This document shows positions 19,601-53,900 of a stretch of DNA of 64,000 nucleotides, piece after piece. Source of the stretch: Eledone cirrhosa (lineage: Eukaryota); the NCBI GenBank assembly GCA_964016885.1, contig OZ024755.1:14136001-14200000 (forward strand), given 5' to 3'. The first letter of the stretch is position 1. Each line of letters opens with the position of its first letter. Below the pieces are notes generated by a model. The model was given only the letters and a program-made list of their open reading frames with translations. It was not told the origin of the DNA and made no database searches. A program made the position numbers and the translations under genes.

Positions 19601-20355
19601 TTTTCAGCTTTTCAAACAGTTTAAATGGTCGTTTCTACACAGAACCAGTCTTTCATAAAACTGCAGTCATCTATATATATATATATACATTGATGAGGTT
19701 ATAGTGAATATTTGCCATAAACCCGTTTGCTCACAATTACGCATTCAATGAGATATAGTTTGAACGTGTGTTGAACAACTCTGTTTCAGAGTGCTAACCA
19801 AGTATATTAGTCATAATGTGGCATTTGCACTTATAAGTCTGGACCCAGGGTTTCTGCTAATACAGAAAGCTTCGATAAGTAGAATTTGCAACATATATAC
19901 ATATATATATATATATATAAAAGGGTATGGATATTCCAACAGGCACTAGGTACCTATAGAAATATGCAAGGTGTTTATAATATTTGTGGTTCGATGGTAC
20001 TAATTTGAGATACCAGAACAATAAAAATGAGCGGAGCAAGCAATTTTCAAACAATTCTTTAAATAAATAAAAAAAACGATTTAAATAATCACCTGTTCTG
20101 TTGCTGTTACCGACGGTTTCACCAATCCAAAGATTGGAAACCCAGAGAATTTCCAATGAAAAGAATTAGATCTTCAGACAGCTTATTTCCATACTATAAG
20201 GTTGCTAATCTCACAGTAAGTCAATATTTCGCTTCCTGACTAACGTATGCAGTCAGGCCATTTTCCAGCCGGTAACAGCAACAGAACAGGTGATTATTTA
20301 AATCGTTTTTTAATTTATTTAAAGAATTGTTAAAAAATTGCTTGCTCTGCTCATT

Positions 20356-41900: not shown

Positions 41901-44900
41901 AGGGATTTACTTAAATTATTAATTATTTATTTTGTTACAAAGATAGTAATTTAATGTCAGGTTCTTATATAAAATTATAATGATAATAATAATGAAATTA
42001 TTGTGTAGTGCTCAGGAAATCTTTAAAATGGGTGGCTTTATTTTATAGAACCAGAGCCAGTTTTAGCCCTGTTGGTAACAAAAGGGTTTAAACTAGCAGA
42101 TTTGCACCATAGAACTAAGGACAGTTTCAGGCAGTTTGGTATCAAAAGACTTAATTGAGATAATTCTTCAAATCCTACCTTCTTCACTTCTAGTTTCTAT
42201 TAAAGACTCATCCTGGCATATTTTCACAGGTGTCATATTCTTGTCGGCACAATCTTTGGAACGTCGCTTGGGACCCCAATTTGGAGTCTGCTGGTCTTTG
42301 TTGAGCCGGTCATTAATGTCTTGAAGAAGGCGCCGTTTACGATTCCTTAACGAATTGTTCAAGTAGTTTGGAGTGAATGCTTCAGGTGACTCTTTCTGGA
42401 ATAAGATGACCATTACAAAATAACAAAATGAAAAATACAAGAAACAAATAAAAATAATAATTGTTTCTACTTAAGGCACAAGGCCAGCAAATACCCAGTG
42501 CATTACTGGTACTTTATTTTATCAACCCTGTAAGGACGAAAGGCAAAGTCAACCTCGGCGGGATTTGAACTCAAAATGTAAAAGGATATAACTATATGCC
42601 ATAAAATATGTTATCTGACGCTCTACCGATTCTACTGCCAATTCAACACAATAAATTTTATTATTGCAACCTAAGTCAGGAAATCAATATTTCTTTGTGA
42701 ACCTTTAATTCTTTAAGTTATGCCAAGGACATGACAACTTCTCTAATGTAGATGCATCCCGTACACTCTGTAATGTGGTTGGTGACAGAAAGGGTATTCA
42801 GCCATAGAATACTTGCCACACAAAGGGTCAAGATGACTCTTCAATTGTGTTAAAGACATGACAACCACCATACTGATAGTGCCACAATAAAACACACCCA
42901 GTTGGAAATGCATATAAACAAGATGTAAACTCATGGCCCATCTGAGAGGTTAGTAGCTCTGAATATGTTCTGACAAGGTCTGTGACAACCCATCCCACCC
43001 TTGCTAGCAGGGAAAATGGGTGTTAAATGATGATGATAATGTAGATGATGTAGTGATGATGATGATGTAGATGATGATGATTTAGAATATTGCATTGCTT
43101 CCAAATATTTTACCAATGCAACCTAATTTAACAAATCAATAGTCCTCTGCAAACCCAAACCTTCCTTTTTATTTTATTTTATTTATTATATTTTTAAATA
43201 TATTCCAATGAGTATACTTATAATTTCATTAGTTTCTTGGGGGAAATATTCTTCAGATTCTGTCTGAAATTCTCAAATGAGGAATTATCATTATTATAAA
43301 CTAATATATTTAGTCTAATCGTGCTCATCTTTGTTGCTATAATCACAACATTTTAGCTCTCATATCCTCCAGCCTTTCTTCACAGGATTTAGCATTAGTA
43401 TAAACTAAAGTTATTCAGACTAGTGACCAATGAGTTACTTGTACCACCCCACACCTTAACCGCCACTTTAAAGTGTAGTGGTACAACTTCTTCCTCAATC
43501 TCAACAACTACAATGATTGTAGGCACAACACAAGCAATGCGAGGGAGAAAGCTGATTCCTGAGGTTACCACGTTTAATCACCTCCTTGCAACACACATGA
43601 ATATTAAGTATGAATTCTAAAAAAAAAAATTCAGGATAGAAATGCAATGCAAATATCATCGTCATCATCATCATCACTGTTTAACATCCATCTTCCATGT
43701 TATCATAGGTAAGATGAGTTGTCTCTTAACATATGGCTCTACATATAATTGTTTCTACTTTAGGCACAAGGCCAGCAATTACCCAGTACATTATTGGTAC
43801 TTTATTTTATCGACCCCGTAAGGATGAAAGGCAAAGTTAACCTCGGCGGGATTTGAACTCAGACTGTAAAGGGACGCAACTATGCTAGAAAGCATGGCGT
43901 CCAACCCTCTACCGATACTGCCAATTCACTGCCCTACATATAATGGTTTCTGTTTAAGGCACAAAGCCAACAATTTTGGAGGGGAGGAGAAAGTTGATAA
44001 AATCAACCCCATAACGTTACTGGTACTTTATTTTATTGACCCTCATAAGGATGAACTCAGAAAGTAAAAGGATGTAACTATATGACACAAAACATCTTCT
44101 CCGATGCTCAAACATTACTGCCAATCTACTGCCCTGTTTCTTACATATAATAGCAATTAGGGGGAAGAGGAAAAGTCATGTTAGTGTTGCATATATTACT
44201 AGGGTGGCTAGATGTTAGCATCTAGCCATGTACGAGATCTCTCCACTATCATAAAACAATAAACAAGTGGGGAGATGCTATACTGGAGAAGATCTATCAA
44301 ACCCATGCAAACAAGGGAAAATGGATATAAATATATAAAAAAAAAAGCTTACCCTTTCAAATAAATACATATCCTCACAGGCACAAGCATCCATTTGAAT
44401 ACTGCCCCAAAACCACTGAAATATAAATAAAACAGTATTTTTATTTGCTTCAATATAGTCCGTAAATAAATGACAGTAGCATGCATGAATGATCCTGCAG
44501 TTTCTGAAGGAGTCGTAGAGGCACCGTATAGACATACGGCATTTCTAGGGCATTTTTAAACCCGGCAGAGCCCATCTGCTCTCCAGGTCTGAATACAGCA
44601 ATTTCTTCCAGGGAAAGATAGAAAATGAGAGAATGGAAGTGAGAAAGAGGTATGAAGGAAGAATTGACCCCAGTACTAGACTAGTACTTTTTTTATCAAT
44701 CTTGAATGGATGAAAGGCAAAGTTGACCATGGTGGGATTTGAACTGAGAAAGCAGAAAGCCAGAACAAATCCACAAAGCATTCTATCCAATATTCTACCA
44801 ATTCTGCCAATTCGCTGCCTTGGTGTCAAACCCCAACAATCTAATGACAAGTTGTTGTCACCAAAGTTGTCCTTCAACAAAACTCCAGATTAGAGGTCTG

Positions 44901-47900
44901 AGGTCTGTTCACATATCAAGGACATTTGTTTGAATGGTAGACTTAACATCATCATTTGAACTTTAAGGACCAATTTTTGCAAGTATTCAGACCAGGTCTC
45001 TGGTTTAAGGAATAACTTCCTCCTTTTCTCCCACCAGTCTCGGAAACGCTGCTTTCCCCACCCACACCCCTGATGAAGGGGGTGAGAGATTTACTAGTCA
45101 TGTAAGGCCAATATATAACAAATTACTTGTTTAAGTAAATGTCCTTTTTCTCACCAGTCTTGGTGACACTGCCCCTAGCCCTACCCTTGATGAAGCAGAA
45201 GAGAGATTTACTAGTCGTGTAAAGCAGATTACATAGAAAATTGCTTGTTTGAGAAAATTTCCTCCTTTTCCCTCACCAGTCTTGGTGACACTGCTCCTCC
45301 CCTCTGATTAAGCCGAGGGGGCTAGATTTACTAGTCATGTAAAGGAAATATATAGAAAATTACTCGTGTGAGAAATAATTCTAAAATAGTTTGTAGGTTA
45401 ATTATTTACAGAACCTCAACTAACTCATAAACAATTTTTATAAATCAATACTTAACTACAAACCTACATAAATGATTTTTTAAAAACTTTGATGAGTTTT
45501 CAGAAGCCTCTAATTGCTTCCAAAAGCTTATTCATGTTAGGTTTTATAAGAAATCGATATAATATTAGTAAAATATATTTCAAGGGTGAGGTCAACAAAT
45601 AAAATGGCAGGTTTAAATCCTGGAAGTCAAAGATTCAGATCCAATGACAAAAGATATCTTATTCTATATTCCTCAATTGAATTAATAAAGAACAAATGAA
45701 GGAGGTTACACAGAGGGGGTATCTTGGGTGTTTTAATGAAAGGAAGGCAGGGGGGTTCTATCCTGAAAAGCAACATAAAATTAAGTGTTTTGCTCAAAAA
45801 TACAAGGCAGCCATATCGTAACCACACAGCCATACAGACACCCATGAAAACCAAGCCAAAAATGGAACATGTGAGCAAGACATGTTTCTTTGACCAATCT
45901 AGGCTCAGATCGTAATGATCTGTCCAACCCATGCCAACATGGATTATGATGATGATGATGGCAGCCAATCCTGTACATCCTAAACAGCCAGTCATACCGG
46001 CAATCAAATCAGTCACACTTCCATACCTCCACTGGTTCTTCAATATTAAAGTATTTTTTAAAGCATTTATATTTATTTAAAAGCCTTCCATCATAATTTT
46101 ATTTAGGAACCTTTGTTAAGTTATGCTCCAAATAGCAGCTTCATAATGAAAAAAAAGGAGTTATATTACTAAATTACTTGGAATCCATTATTCTCAGAAT
46201 TATTTTAAATATTATAGACAGTGTTTTGTATTATAAATGTGGTAATGAAAGGATTAACCATACAGCCATGTCTACACCAACCAAACAACAGAAGGGTCCA
46301 TTTTTAGATGACAAGATGTGCAGATGTAAGACTAATTATTTAGCTTCAAATATATAGATTGATGTAACAAGTTCTAGATCAATATTCATGAACATGCTTG
46401 AACACTTTATGTCCAGAGTTGATAGTATATGACAGACTTGCAGATTAGCTGAAAACTTCCTCCCCTCTTATCAACCAAGTGAAATTGTATTTGACAGTAT
46501 CAAGAGAACAGGTGGTAAAAGACAAAGACACTAACTTAACCCCTTGGATACAAACCAACTGAAACCACTCTTAGTTTTATGACACTAAGCTTATATATTT
46601 TAAAGTATTTATATCTATCTTTTCTTCTTCTTCATTGCCCACTTATTCCTGAGAGGGTTGTGGGAGCAGCCCTTCAACACTCCTTCCAACAGGTCCTGTC
46701 AGAAGCAACCATCTCCAATTGATCCGGCTGGATTCCCAAGCGAAACAAGCCGAGCTCATGGATGTTATTCAACCAACTTGCTCGGGGTCTTCCCCTGGGT
46801 CTCATGCCAGTTGGTTTTACCCATAAAATCTGTCTAGCAATTCTTCATATGCATTTTGAAGTCTGGTACTTATTTTGACAACCTTAATTTGGCAAACCGC
46901 TAGTGAATGAAACATAAATGAACAGCAAACACACACACACACACACACATATAGACACACATACAACAAAGTTTTTGATATTTTCAAAATTATAGGCAAT
47001 GTCTTTAATTAGAGGTATGGTAACAAAAGGGTAAGAGCACATATAAATGGAATGCTCAAAACTTGCATATTAGTTTCATGAGCAGGTTGTTCCAATGATC
47101 AAACAACAGAAACACTCAGCATCAAGACTGACAATACTTTACCCTTTCATGATTGCATTTATAATGAAATACAGTCTATTTTAATTAATGAAGAATTTTG
47201 AGGAATTTTCTCAAATTATTAATTATTTCATTACTAAGATAGTAACTTAATGTACGGCTCTTATATAAAATTGTTGGAAGATTTTAATTTAAATTGGAAA
47301 CCTTTAAAATGGGTGATTTTATTTCATAGAACCAAAGCCGGGTTGGTAAGTAAAGGGTTAATGCTGCCAAATGGTTAAAGAGTTTGCTTCGCAAACATTA
47401 GATCCCTACATTAACATTAGGTTCAATCCCATTGCATGGCATCATCAGTGAGTGTTATTTAGCATAGCTTAAGGTTGACACATGGGTTACGAATCAAATT
47501 GGGAGGCAAAAACTGCTTGAAAGCCCATTGGATGGACTCTAATTGTAATTCAAAGAGCCAGTCTTATGCCACACAGTTATGCTGAATCTCCCTGAGAATT
47601 TACACATTAATTTCATAGCAGCCTGTTCCATTGATGGAACATCTAGGATACTGGTCATCGAAACCAACAGTGGCATGTGTACAACAGTATAACAATGGTA
47701 ACTTAGTAGTCTTGATCTACAATCATGACTGTACTCCATACATCATCAACAATTAATTATTAACAAACTGAACAAATGAAGTAGTTAAATTACATACACA
47801 CATACAAAGAGAGAGACAGACAGACATAGATTACAGAGAGAGAGGGGGGAGAAGGGGGGAGGGGGCAAAGAGGGAATGAGAGAGAGACAAGAAAGAGTGA

Positions 47901-50900
47901 AGGAGAGAGAGAGAGAATCAGAGAAATAGAGAGGGAATCAGAGAGAGGGGGAGAGACAGAGAGAAAAGAGAGAGAGGGGGGGGGGGGGAGAAGATAGTCA
48001 CAGAGGTCACATCTATAAAACATCAACCGTTCGAATCATTTGTCATCTTTAATTCCCCAAACCTCAATCAACATAGTTGTAAATATGAACAGACGGAGCA
48101 AATCAGATTGCTGGTGCAGTACCAACGCCAAACTGTAATGAATACAACAATAATATTACCATTGTTGTTGCTGCTGCTGCCATTGTTGTTGTTGTTATAG
48201 TAGTACCAATGAGTGGACTTCTATAGAATCATTGAAACAGTTCTCTGAATGTCTCTCTTAAAACACTCCACTGTCATTAAATTTGAGAACCACATGTATT
48301 AATATTCAATAAATTATGAATACTTAAGATTAAACATCCTTTCTTTAGGCTGTGTTGAGTCGCCTGCTATTGTCTTCTCAATTTACTTCCTTTACATATA
48401 TACATATGTGTGTGAGTGTAATATATATATATATGTATATTCCATGTCTTTCTATAACAACTGTATATTTATCAGATTTCAATGCTGTAAACTATTAAAC
48501 TTCACACTGTAACATACATACACAAACATACATACATAGATAGATAGATAGGTAGAAAGAGACATATAATAGACACACAGACAAATGGTGTGTGTGTGTG
48601 TATGTATGTGTGTGTGTATATATACACACACACACACAACACATATATTATTTTATTCTTGTACTGGTTTCAGTAATTAGACTGTGGCCGTGCTAGGGCA
48701 ACCATCTTAAAGAGATTTAGGTCGATCATAATGGCCCGAGTACGTATTTTTAAGTCTGGCATTTATTTTGTCAACCTCTATTTATCAAACCGCTAGTGAA
48801 TGGAACATAAATGAACAGTAAACGCACACACACAGCTATGGACAAATACACTCTGACACGAACATCCACCCACACACACACAATAAATACCCGCACAGAT
48901 CTATCAACAAAATTTCACTCACAAGGCATAGGTCAACTCATGACAACAGTAAAAATCACTTACCCCAGGTGTTATGCAGTGTGACTGAACCCAAAAACCA
49001 CATTGTTGAGAGGCGAACTCCTTAACCACATAGCTACACCCAATGACTGACTGAATACATACATGTTCTTGCTCAAAAAAAATGTTTTTCCATTCCTTCT
49101 TTTCACTCTCTATCTTTCTATTTTATCTTTTATTTCTCATTCTATTTCCTGATGAAGGCCTAGTGTCTGAAACGTAAAGACTGTTTTCCTAGTGTTAAAC
49201 TAATATATTTCTTCATTATACTGCATTGTTTGCTTTGTTGTTTCAGTTTACTTTTTGCATACATACATATATATATATAAACCCAAGCAAGCGTGGAAGA
49301 TGGACGTTAAACGATGATGATGATGGCACACACATATGCACATACACATATATATTTGTGTGTGCGCATGCCTATGTGTGAGTGTATATATTTATATACA
49401 TTTCTATTTAATAATGTATATTTATATAATCACTGACAAGTAAATTTATGTTTCTTCTATCATGACATATCAAACTGAACATGTCTGTATTGAAAGCCTA
49501 CCCCAAGTGGAACCCAACCGAAGAGCCACCAGCTATCAACGTTAAATCAGCCATAAATACTAAGACAATGAAAGAGCTGTAGTCACGCACAGCTAGAGGA
49601 TAGGTGTTGACATGTTGGAAACCTTAGACCATGTATATACTATTACTTAGAACGAAAAGCTGGCTATACAATTTCAGTGTGCAAAGTGTGATACTGCATG
49701 GAAGTGAAACATGGGGAGCAGAGGGGGTGAATGTCCTGGACACTCCTAATCAAATAACACCCCCTCGAACAACAGTCCTGGCCCCACAAACCTAAACTGC
49801 TCTGGGCCCCCAACAAATCTGAACTGCCCCGTGCCACACCAATGTCTAAATATGGCCCTGGAAACATGGGCAGTTAAATGCAGAGAGAAATGTGTGATTC
49901 TAAAGAGCACAAAAAGCAAAGGATAGATGAGTGTGAGAGAAATCAAATGGAGTGTGCAAGAGAGAAGACTGCTGGTATGGACATGTGATACATATGGATG
50001 ATGATTGTTGGGTGAAGAAGTGCCAGAAATTCCCAGTGGAAGACCTATCCTATCCCAGGCCATCCGATGAGATGCTCCACTCATCATCCCTAGGTCAATA
50101 GAATGAATATCACGTGACTAGTTCCTCTTTTTATTTAGGAAATTCAGAAGCAATAAAGACTAATTGGGGACATAACCTAAGATTCTTGCATAAATTATGT
50201 TGGATCCTTATATATAGAAGATCCCATTAAGGGTGAAAGCAGCAATTCTTTGCTTAAACTTTAATCTGTTATTTTAATAAATATTTGCTCTAGGGTTCTT
50301 ATATATTTGATATATATTTATCCTTATCGAGCCCTCTTTGGATTTTAGTCTTCACATTTATTATTATTATTACAATATCATTTCATTTTTTTTTCATTTC
50401 ATTTTACGTCCGCTTTCTCCCTGCTTGCAAGGGTGGGACGGTAACTGATTTTGGCTTGATTTCTACAGCTGGATGCCCTTCCTAACACCAACCTCATTTA
50501 CAGTGAGTGCTGGGTGCTTTTTTGCCGTGGCACCTCCACGACCACTTTGCAGTGGAATGATAGGGACCCCAGTCCCTATCATCTCATTTCTACAGCTGAG
50601 TAAACTGGAGCAATGTGAAATAAAGTGTCTTGCTCAAGGAAACAACACATCACCCGGTCTGAGAATTGAACTCACAACCTTTCGATTGCAAGGCCAATGC
50701 TCTAACCACTACGCCATGTGCCTCCATATATATATATAAGGGCGGTGGATTGGCAGTATCGGTAGAGGGTCGGACGCCATGCTTTCCAGCATAGTTACGT
50801 TCATTTACGATCTGAGTTCAAATCCCGCCGAGGTTGACTTTGCCTTTCATCCTTACGGGGTCGATAAAATAAAGTACCAGTAATGCACTGGGTAATTGCT

Positions 50901-50929
50901 GGCCTTGTGCCTAAAGTAGAAACAATTAT

Positions 50930-50966
<37 letters not shown>

Positions 50967-53900
50967 TATAAAATTGCAAGTTTGTAGAAATCAACCATAT
51001 AAATAATCATTTAAATGAGGCTATAAGTTTAAAATGTAACTATGAAGAAATAATAGACGAATGATACAGACTATTTTCCGAGAGGAACAGTCAGATAAAA
51101 TTTATCTAGTCATTCCTTTTAGCCCGTAGAAATTAACTAGACAAATAATCAACTAAACGGAGCTAGGTCTAAAATATAAGTTAGAAGAAAAAAATGCATA
51201 TAAATTTTACCAAAATTCCTCTAGTCCCGACTGTCGACAGTTTCGCTCGTTCTTTGTGCATATATCCGATCCTGGAATTATACATGAGGCTTCGAGCTTA
51301 TCAAGAGACCAGAAATGACATATATATATATGTGTGTGTGTGACACAGAGGAGACTGAGGTTAGCTAGACATGCTCACCGACATCCAGAGTTGACATTGC
51401 ACTCAGTGCTCCTGTGGGAACCCCTACATGGACACACTCGAAGAGGAAGACCAAGGTTAACGTATGTTGATGCCCTAAGGACAGACACTGGTCTGTTGGA
51501 GACGAAAGACATGGCAGCGATCATGAGGGACAGAGACCACTGGAGAGAACTCGTCCATGGATCTCGGGAATTTTACCCGCCCTAGAATATACTTTAAAAC
51601 AGTTCTGTATTGCAGTTTAAAGTGGTCAGATATCAAAAGGGTTAAATTGGTAGTGTAGCAATGACAACTTAATGCAAGGGAAGTAATTCCAAAAGCCAAT
51701 TTTGGACAGTTTCTCTTGGTATATAACTCTCCAGTTGAAAAAGATAAAGAAAGTTACAGAAAAATGCACAGAAAAATACACCAAGATGGTTGGTTAAAGG
51801 AAAGGCATCTAGCTGTAGAAATCATGGCAAAAAAAGTTGAGAGGACCCATCAGTTGTGTCAAGAGCACAACAACCTCTCTAGTGTTGGTGACACAATAAA
51901 ATGCACCCAGTGGACTCTGTAAAGTGATTGGTGAAAGGAAAGGAATCCAGTTGTAGTAAACTTGCCAAATAAAGAATTGGGAGACCTCTTCAGTTGAGTC
52001 AAAGACATAACTTACTTAGAGCTGATGACACGATAAAATGTACCCAAGACATGCTGCTACTGGAAGTGTTATTGAAGTTGACACTATTGGTGATAGTGAC
52101 AATGGTAGTTGTGTTGACCGTGGTATTGGTGGTTGTGCTGCTGCTGGAGGTGGTGGTGTTGGTGGTGATGGTGGTGCTGTTAATGGTGGTACTGGTATTT
52201 CTGTTGATGTTGGTATTTGTGTTAGTGGTGGTGATGGTGCTACTACTGTTGGTGGTGGTGGTGGTGGTGTTACTGCTCTTGGTGGTGATGATGATGACAA
52301 TGATGACAATGATGATGATGATCTTCCAATATTCAGCTCCTATAGTGATCAACTAAACATTCCACCAGTCTGACTTCTCTGCTACTGTTAACAGAATCTA
52401 TTGCTGTTGTTTATCATTAACTCTGGCTTTGTTGGTTGGTTCATGAATTAGATGTTAATTTACATTTAGTCAACATGGGGGATTTGAAATAGCAATATCC
52501 ATTACTTTTATCTCAGCTCTTTAGCTTTAAATGTTGCCATGTATCAGGAGACATCTGAGATTAACAAACTAACCACAGTCTTATTCTACTTCACATAAAC
52601 ATGGATACTTTCCTAGCGAAAAGCAATATCCTCTTTTTATCTTTCCCCCCTTCTGTCCCCTCTCCTCTCCTTCTACCCTGTACATCCCCCTCTCTCTCTC
52701 ACTCCCTTCCTCTCTCAGGCAGCATATTTCCTTGAAGTATTTGTTCCAGCTTTCTGCACTGTAAATTCAAATAGTGTAGCAGTCAACTTTGTATTTCGTT
52801 CTTTTGGAGTTGATAAAACTAAGATCCAGTACCGAGCGAGGGATTGGCAGAATTGTGAGAACATCGGACAAGATATCCAAGAGGACTTGTTCCAGCTCTT
52901 TGCATTCTGGGATCAAGTCTTATTGTAGCCTATTTGGTGGTAGATTTTATCCATTGCCCAGTTTAACATAACCACCTGGCCCTTTAGTACCATTAGGAAA
53001 ATCCACCAGCTGGATCCCCAAACAGGACCAGACAGCAAATAGATGTTGTCCAACTACCTTGCTCAGGGTCTACCCCTGGGTCTCCTGCCACCTGGTTTAG
53101 CCCATAAAATCTGTCCAGCAATTCTTTCCTGAGACATTCTAAGCACATGCCCATAGAGACATCAGGGCAACAAGAAGCTGTACATCGATCCCATTTCCCT
53201 TCCTGAAAAAAATAACAAAAAAAAGGCACCCAGAAACACACAACATGAATACTCACTTCAGTTCTTACAATGAACCCGTCAGGGTTACTGATGGCAGGGA
53301 CATGGTCAGTAATTTGGTCATCAATCACCAAATGAGTAGCCCTTTCATCATTGCACTTGACATAGGTACCACCTGAAATTGAAAACAATTCCTTATTGAC
53401 ACATAACTGCTCAAGTTACAATTTCAGAACTACTTTTACCATATTTCTAAAGAAAGACACTGCCTATGATTTTCAAATCATTCTAAAAAGAATAAAAAAT
53501 TTGGAGGATTTATAGAATTTTCTCATTATTAAGCTGGTATTTGAAACATAAATGTTCTTACACAAAATTTTGGTGGAAGGTTTTTTGATATATATAAACA
53601 CTTTAAACCTTTCATTGCCATATTTCTAATGAAAGACACTACCTATGATTTTCAAATAGTTTTGTAAATAATGAAGGATTTGGTGGGATTTATAAATAGA
53701 ACTAACTTTCTTCTTAATAAGCAGGTATTTGAAACAGAACACAACAAAATGTTCTTACATAAAATTATGATGGAAGGGTTTTCAATATATATAAACACTT
53801 TAAACCTTCCATTACCATATTTCTAATGATAGACACTGCCTATGATTTACAAATAATTTTGTAAATAAGAATTTGGTGGGATTTATAAATATAACTTTCT

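Follow-up and report, generated by a model that had tools for sequence, protein, structure and literature searches.

The closest described relatives of the sequence analysed here are the metazoan non-LTR retrozymes (PMC7229834), the hammerhead ribozymes of Penelope-like elements (PMC4209133) and the pseudoknot-stabilised hammerheads (Perreault et al. 2011, PMC3088659). In Schistosoma mansoni, about 1,300 U3-A8 motifs have been described in Penelope-associated hammerheads (PMC4209133). Natural U3-A8 cores were also reported in PMC3088659, where a pseudoknot contact is predicted for approximately 40% of hammerheads. Hammerheads form part of the annotation of the giant squid genome (PMC6962438). 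In the open literature, as distinct from supplements and subscription papers, we found no description of a long-unit family in octopus or of its retrozyme pseudoknot, and our literature search returned no measured cleavage rate for a U3-A8 core.

Here we analyse a hammerhead within a 64,000-nt stretch of the Eledone cirrhosa genome, referred to as the window. An earlier note, made from the bare sequence, had described it as an intact-looking U3-A8 ribozyme on the ECT2 pre-mRNA strand that could cut nascent ECT2 RNA and affect its splicing or level. This hammerhead resides on a truncated copy of a non-coding repeat, likely a retrozyme that Penelope-type enzymes pasted into a (TA)n run of an ECT2 intron, and we consider it probable that it is a tolerated passenger predicted to cut slowly. 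The coordinates of the features are collected in Table 1.

Table 1. Features of the hammerhead insert and its host intron, in window coordinates.
Feature	Position	Strand	Remark
ECT2 exon 5' of the host intron (BRCT region)	53257..53372	-	
Host intron, 8,841 nt	44416..53256	-	splice sites inferred from GT/AG and frame
ECT2 exon 3' of the host intron	44353..44415	-	continues the reading frame of the upstream exon
(CA)n(TA)n run bordering the insert on its 5' side	51319..51342	.	
Truncated, doubly deleted copy of the ~710-bp ORF-less hammerhead repeat, subfamily A	50970..51318	-	
(TA)n microsatellite bordering the insert on its 3' side, likely target	50933..50970	.	
Hammerhead fold	51218..51315	-	type I; stem I = 51315-51305 with 51228-51218
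Stem I, 5' strand	51313-51305	-	
Core positions 3-9, UUGAUAA, U3-A8 variant	51298..51304	-	variant is family-wide
Stem II, 5 bp, closing the 43-nt loop II with its distal hairpin	51245..51297	-	
Stem II strands	51297-51293 with 51249-51245	-	
CCUCA in loop II, the remaining strand of the pseudoknot	51285..51289	-	partner deleted in the ECT2 copy
GAAA of the core and stem III, a perfect 12-nt palindrome	51230..51244	-	
GAAA	51244-51241	-	
Stem III palindrome, 12 nt	51241-51230	-	
GUC triplet	51231-51229	-	feature 51228..51231; predicted cut 51229/51228
Junction of the 39-nt deletion, private to the ECT2 copy	51309..51310	-	1 genome match at <=1 mismatch
Junction of the second deletion, ~45-47 nt, near the 3' end	50983..50984	-	absent from the 29 other loci compared

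The hammerhead fold and its host gene

All elements of the type I hammerhead that the earlier note had described on the minus strand are in place between 51313 and 51220. Three helices surround the core and the open end lies in stem I, which gives the type I topology. U4, G5, A6 and A9, G12, A13 and A14, the A15.1-U16.1 pair, H17 and a Watson-Crick 3-8 pair are all present, with U3-A8 replacing C3-G8. The hammerhead is the minimum-energy fold (−28.8 kcal/mol, z-score −1.9, with 8 of 200 shuffles equally stable) and, apart from the A15.1-U16.1 pair, also the centroid fold. Stem I comprises 10 bp in the minimum-energy fold, or 11 if a further G-U pair is added. Of the stem pairings quoted previously, every element could be located, whereas the distal part of stem II deviates from the family form by two substitutions. 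Stem III, rightly called palindromic, reads as a perfect 12-nt palindrome which, by its computed energies, pairs far better between molecules than within one (self-duplex −19.3 versus hairpin −1.4 kcal/mol).

Rfam, whose Hammerhead_1 model had been suggested as a check, yielded no hammerhead at the gathering score in the window and none at E≤10 in the region 50900-51500; the U3-A8 core and the 43-nt loop II offer a plausible reason for this. A structural descriptor demanding the core, at least 5 pairs in stems I and II and at least 4 in stem III, with thresholds chosen once the motif was known, matched once in the window and never in 40 shuffled windows. A fold arisen by chance, without ribozyme ancestry, would sit well with the missing Rfam match and the modest z-score, but it would explain neither the empty shuffled windows nor the covariation of the stems, the palindrome, the 3-8 pair and the pseudoknot across subfamilies (see below), and we regard such an origin as hardly conceivable.

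The exon at 40114-39926 matches the solved human ECT2 protein (E-value 6.7e-17), with a Pfam RhoGEF match below the cut-off, and the exon at 53372-53257 matched ECT2 entries exclusively, if weakly (4 of 4 hits, E-values 0.05-0.37). Together with the GT/AG splice sites and the reading frame, these matches agree with the earlier placement: the hammerhead appears to lie on the sense strand of the ECT2 intron 53256-44416, with 2,027 nt between donor and cut site and 6,812 nt between cut site and acceptor.

A second hammerhead is found on the same strand as the ECT2 motif, the minus strand, at window positions 20190-20095 (core at 20177). It belongs to an unrelated repeat with 1,810 first-look candidates, a tandem spacing of ~468 bp and an inverted arm at 20360-20270. 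It has a C3-G8 core, a GUA triplet and a hairpin in loop II; its 5' strand, like that of the main family, is complementary to loop II, and folding gave no clean hammerhead fold. The probable location of this motif is a 3' intron of ECT2. The exons on either side, which we take to be ECT2 by their likeness to it, had no match in searches that included Pfam. Because a second, unrelated hammerhead repeat is present on the same strand, hammerhead insertions seem to be commonplace here.

The insert as a copy of a mobile repeat

The insert of ~350 bp (~50970-51320) that had been thought to be bounded by (TA)n was recovered at 51318-50970, between a (CA)n(TA)n run and a (TA)n run. As a genome query, its 346 bp yielded 2,090 first-look candidates, and among the 44 matches listed were 41 long ones with 91-100% identity. 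A 16-mer of the core had 135 exact genome matches and a 25-mer of stem III had 401 at ≤2 mismatches, with none for the reversed control in either case. The genome-wide copy count proposed in the earlier note thus gives at least 401 copies, that is, a multi-copy repeat, and the hammerhead in the intron is a member of this mobile repeat and no ECT2-specific element.

The ECT2 copy spans approximately unit positions 280-288 and 329-652 as well as the 3' end, and differs from the subfamily A majority in 10 of 325 bases (~3%). It is solitary: the window contains no second hammerhead of the same family with which it could form a dimer in cis.

Two repeats of very high copy number adjoin the insert, at window positions 51346-51590 and 50730-50930, with summed contig depths of ~1e6 and ~1e7, respectively, against ~10 in unique sequence. 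The repeat at 51346-51590 has a frame on the plus strand (51319-51582) that looks like a reverse transcriptase terminus.

Unit anatomy and the connection to Penelope-like elements

The full unit of subfamily A is ~710 bp long, and its longest open frame has 50 codons. We compared the ECT2 copy to 29 other loci, two of which overlap and all of which were chosen for containing the queried part. In these, the 5' starts are scattered over unit positions 1-308 and the 3' ends fall at positions 698-708, followed by (TA)n or by the next unit. In several loci, the sequence extends into the next unit as far as its position ~143, and in several an inverted piece is found 5'-terminally. The units thus show the partial tandem, the inverted 5' piece, the short 3' extension and the microsatellite target of Penelope-mobilised sequences, and the arrangement described for Penelope-like elements (PMC8557442) matches the footprints of unit A. 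The Penelope connection drawn earlier from the palindrome is upheld by these insertion footprints. In 3 of 3 loci, there was neither a tRNA gene nor a tRNA-derived head.

At the level of the family, each non-coding repeated unit carries one type I hammerhead, and copies stand head to tail, as partial tandems in subfamily A and as dimers and a long array in subfamilies B/E. The unit size of 660-710 bp is outside the 300-400 bp expected for a metazoan non-LTR retrozyme. Alternatively, the unit could be a pseudo-LTR, a terminal repeat that has become separated from an autonomous Penelope-like element, the ECT2 copy still being a passenger. Penelope pseudo-LTRs do bear type I hammerheads and are mostly solo copies in Schistosoma mansoni (PMC4209133), and the partial tandems, the inverted arms and the Penelope-type frames near several loci would be consistent with such an origin. 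However, in those loci with a homologous upstream neighbour, this neighbour is the unit's own 3' end and not a coding frame, a sister unit forms a long, pure tandem array, and the nearby Penelope frames are set off by microsatellite and have unrelated ends. Within the fetched loci, which included 1.5 kb of flank each and came from the 40 top-ranked candidates scored in each search, no frame with reverse transcriptase (RT) and GIY-YIG domains was found between terminal repeats. We consider a derivation from a pseudo-LTR unlikely and continue with that of a retrozyme-like unit mobilised in trans.

The Penelope-type frames adjoining the copies L008 and L017, examined over 10 kb, were discarded as candidate partners: they are members of other families, microsatellite lies between and the ends are unrelated. 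Broken Penelope-type elements share (TA)n runs with family copies at L031:3207-5860, where the element has inverted ends of ~470 bp, and at L032:6900-8050. From their motifs, we presume their frames, with RT, a GIY-YIG-like domain and a Cys-rich linker, to be of Penelope type; Pfam searches with the Penelope-type frames (RT, GIY-YIG-like, Cys linker) gave no match. Such neighbouring frames may represent the mobilising enzymes of the family.

The 3' half of unit A contains an internal repeat at ~75% identity, and segments at unit positions ~408, ~510 and ~650 (window 51228, the 51120 region and the deleted 3' part) start like the sequence that follows the cut site. This suggests that the cleavage site served as an anchor for duplications long ago. 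Other repeats adjoining fetched family copies contain further hammerhead-like motifs, which are AT-rich and combine a C3-G8 core with an AUA triplet (L005:2026-2513, L089:2723, L110:1848).

Subfamilies and covariation

The compensatory U3-A8 core pointed out in the earlier note is genuine and inherited from the family: it is present in 47 of the 51 parsed copies of subfamily A, the other 4 having U3-G8 (2 of 53 copies were unparsed), and a C3-G8 version of the 16-mer had no genome match. One stem III pair of this subfamily is G-C in 28 of 47 copies and A-U in 12, with the palindrome kept, and this switch probably reflects a single inherited event. By eye count, 93 of the 100 exact 25-mer matches listed keep either the G-C or the A-U form of stem III.

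Related subfamilies were found adjoining copies of subfamily A. Subfamily B has units of 660 bp that are 96-99% alike and a C3-G8 core, whereas subfamily C is older and has a U3-A8 core. A pattern search, with 1,199 matches versus 168 in the control, yielded subfamilies E-I, although some of its rows are unrelated background. Subfamilies A and C have U-A as their 3-8 pair; in B, E, F, G and H the pair is C-G. Stem III is palindromic in A, B/E, C, G and H yet divergent in sequence, and more generally the sequences of stem I, stem II and the palindrome change between subfamilies while their pairing is kept.

Tandem copies of a sister subfamily, 34 among the matches listed, extend over 27.7 kb at a spacing of ~660 bp, and the array at C1:92,985,700-93,015,700 (L116, L118) contains ~43 hammerhead units of ~660 bp. 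This array begins with an inverted copy and ends in (TA)n, and a recurring variation of stem II is seen in many of its units.

RNAalifold, applied to 47 copies, recovered stem II and an unrelated hairpin and nothing else; we therefore counted structure against a named fold. A covariance model of subfamily A gave scores of 19-42 bits for C copies and 17-25 bits for B copies, which is too weak for reliable alignment. Judging from the pairing kept between subfamilies, the hammerhead structure is under selection at the level of the family. Within 50 genomic copies, core positions change at 3.5%, compared to 3.8% in the 3' flank, and the core is still intact in 33 of the 50. Since cores decay at the neutral rate, an intact core in a given copy is not a sign of selection.

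A pseudoknot between the stem I flank and loop II

In subfamilies A, B, C, E, F, G and H, a complementarity of 5-7 bp links the 5' side of loop II to the strand that directly precedes stem I; this strand abuts stem I, or nearly so. The paired strands are UGAGG/CCUCA in A and C, UUGAGUU/AACUCAA in B and E, CGAGUUU/AAACUCG in H, UGAGAA/UUCUCA in G and UUGAGC/GCUCAA in F. Over 47 copies of subfamily A, 92.7% of the pseudoknot cells are paired, and no two-sided change was seen among them.

For a comparison across the family, we counted pairing at the two free inner pseudoknot positions of eight representatives. Pairing was present in 12 of the 16 cases, the permutation mean being 4.9, and 36 of 40,320 permutations reached as high a value, in a test that ignores kinship, omitted three near-duplicate rows and the ECT2 copy, retained one mis-registered row (L114) and took four of its eight rows from a pattern that fixes the outer bases. 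The results point to a covarying pseudoknot that is common to the subfamilies and would be new here.

Deletions in the ECT2 copy and their predicted effect

The 39-nt deletion, whose junction is read from the assembly, fuses upstream sequence to stem I and removes both the pseudoknot strand and a competing strand; by chance, stem I has thereby grown from 6 to 10-11 bp. The long stem I of the ECT2 copy is thus a deletion scar and no mark of an intact ribozyme. In a fixed register, the ECT2 copy retains 1 of 5 pseudoknot pairs, whereas 4 or 5 are preserved in 43 of 53 copies. The description of the ribozyme as intact-looking is therefore not supported, the family's pseudoknot strand being missing from this copy. 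All 11 core positions are unchanged, and the sole private substitution inside the ribozyme, at 51259, turns a mismatch of the distal stem into a U-G pair. Another private substitution is located at 51081.

In the family, the removed competing strand pairs with the 3' half of stem I. Because the deletion also removed this strand, the bare fold of the ECT2 copy is predicted to form well. Its nested-fold probability is 0.48 with short flanks, which ranks fourth of 51 copies (family median 0.001), and 0.21 with 120-nt flanks, which ranks second of 51; two copies were unparsed. The values for the family are underestimates, since the program cannot score pseudoknots.

Published measurements on other hammerheads give an idea of what the loss of the pseudoknot could mean. 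In another pseudoknotted hammerhead, shortening the pseudoknot lowered the rate 20- to >100-fold at 0.5 mM Mg2+, and the addition of two pairs to stem I also slowed cleavage, while the human C10 hammerhead is reported to be inactive without its 5-bp pseudoknot (PMC3088659). By analogy, a large loss of rate would be predicted for the ECT2 copy at low Mg2+, although some contact may substitute for the deleted pseudoknot. The ECT2 copy is likely too slow to regulate the gene because it has lost the helper helix that its relatives kept.

The same deletion could also be read in the opposite way, which gives the idea of the earlier note its strongest form: rid of the competing strand and endowed with an 11-bp stem I, the ribozyme would have been unlocked, and it would cut nascent ECT2 RNA so often that the mRNA is lowered or tuned. 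The sense orientation with 6,812 nt to the next acceptor, the unchanged core and the position of the ECT2 copy in the best-folding tier of 51 copies would all agree with this, as would the reported in vitro activity of U3-A8 (PMC3088659), the precedent of the intronic CPEB3 ribozyme (PMC10919898) and a fungal Penelope hammerhead that shows no recognisable tertiary contacts and cleaves at 0.16 per minute in 1 mM Mg2+ (PMC4209133). Yet the covarying pseudoknot is lost, an intact core is expected by chance (33 of 50 copies), the insertion is recent, at 3% from the family majority, and the ECT2 copy has no sign of site-specific conservation. Frequent cutting of ECT2 RNA is, in our view, improbable. 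We give equally little credence to the more far-reaching proposal that the 39-nt deletion freed a braced, partly self-masked hammerhead and so created a young ribozyme cutting ECT2 pre-mRNA, with an undescribed superfamily of long retrozymes as its parent, in which the 3-8 pair and the pseudoknot covary. If true, this superfamily would offer a natural series for testing the spread of such elements.

The importance for ECT2 suggested by the earlier note is thus unsupported, given a mobile repeat of at least 401 copies, the loss of the pseudoknot strand, the lack of a partner in the window and the neutral decay of the core.

A possible route into ECT2

The reading we prefer, that of a slow-cutting passenger, can be put as a series of steps. 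Tandem units of the family would be transcribed and cut once per unit by their hammerheads, acting as pseudoknot-braced monomers or as palindrome-joined dimers. The unit RNA would then probably be circularised, and target-primed reverse transcription by a Penelope-like RT/endonuclease would place a copy in (TA)n. The ECT2 copy, in turn, would be passively transcribed with ECT2 and fold as a bare U3-A8 hammerhead without the brace between stem I and stem II, and it would seldom cut in the few minutes before the intron is completed and spliced, remaining a tolerated passenger. At mammalian polymerase speed (scaled from PMC10919898), the acceptor would be reached in roughly two minutes; in a cold-water animal, the time is likely longer. 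Slow intronic ribozymes are reported to leave splicing unaffected, with only fast ones disturbing it (Fong 2009, cited in PMC10919898).

For ECT2 itself, the insertion is most likely irrelevant, but it shows that hammerhead repeats often land in genes here and are tolerated.

Comparison with known systems

The human hammerheads of C10orf118 and RECK (PMC3088659) and the CPEB3 ribozyme (PMC10919898) are, like the ECT2 copy, located on the sense strand of introns, kilobases before the next exon. According to the same sources, these ribozymes are single-copy, conserved across mammals or amniotes, and active, whereas the ECT2 copy belongs to a repeat family and was inserted recently. The ECT2 motif, being multi-copy, does not fall among conserved regulatory intronic ribozymes, for which a single copy conserved at the orthologous site is expected.

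With the pseudoknot-stabilised hammerheads (Perreault et al. 2011, PMC3088659), the family shares the base-paired contact between stem I and stem II. In the parts of that study on which we draw, no animal retrozyme family with a pseudoknot appears, whereas here the pseudoknot varies across the subfamilies of one genome. In this context, the ECT2 copy represents a natural pseudoknot-deletion mutant.

The hammerheads of Penelope-like elements, including those of Cercyon in Schistosoma mansoni (PMC4209133), share with the family the type I topology and the U3-A8 covariation, and likewise the palindromic helix III and many solo and opposite-strand copies. As described there, they are minimal, with little or no helix III, whereas here helix III can form 4 bp; their helix II has 7-8 bp, compared to 5 bp and a long insert here, and they have an extra base after A9, which subfamily A lacks. 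The repeats described in PMC4209133 flank an RT-endonuclease frame, while within the fetched loci none was found with the unit described here.

The units of the metazoan non-LTR retrozymes (PMC7229834) are likewise AT-rich and non-coding and contain a single type I hammerhead; they range from dimers to long tandem arrays and have Penelope-like elements proposed as their mobilising partner, as is the case here. The differences lie in the unit size, 660-710 bp here versus 330-390 bp in axolotl and mussel, in the 40-50-nt insert of loop II, and in the Watson-Crick pseudoknot, which here replaces the loop 1-loop 2 contacts. Unlike those retrozymes, the family comprises both C3-G8 and U3-A8 subfamilies, and it is known from DNA alone. 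With retrozyme-like units of 660-710 bp, both core variants and Penelope-type footprints, it should be of moderate interest to specialists in ribozymes and transposons. The U3-A8 core of Penelope-associated hammerheads is already published, and the putative covarying pseudoknot in long units would add a modest novelty to it.
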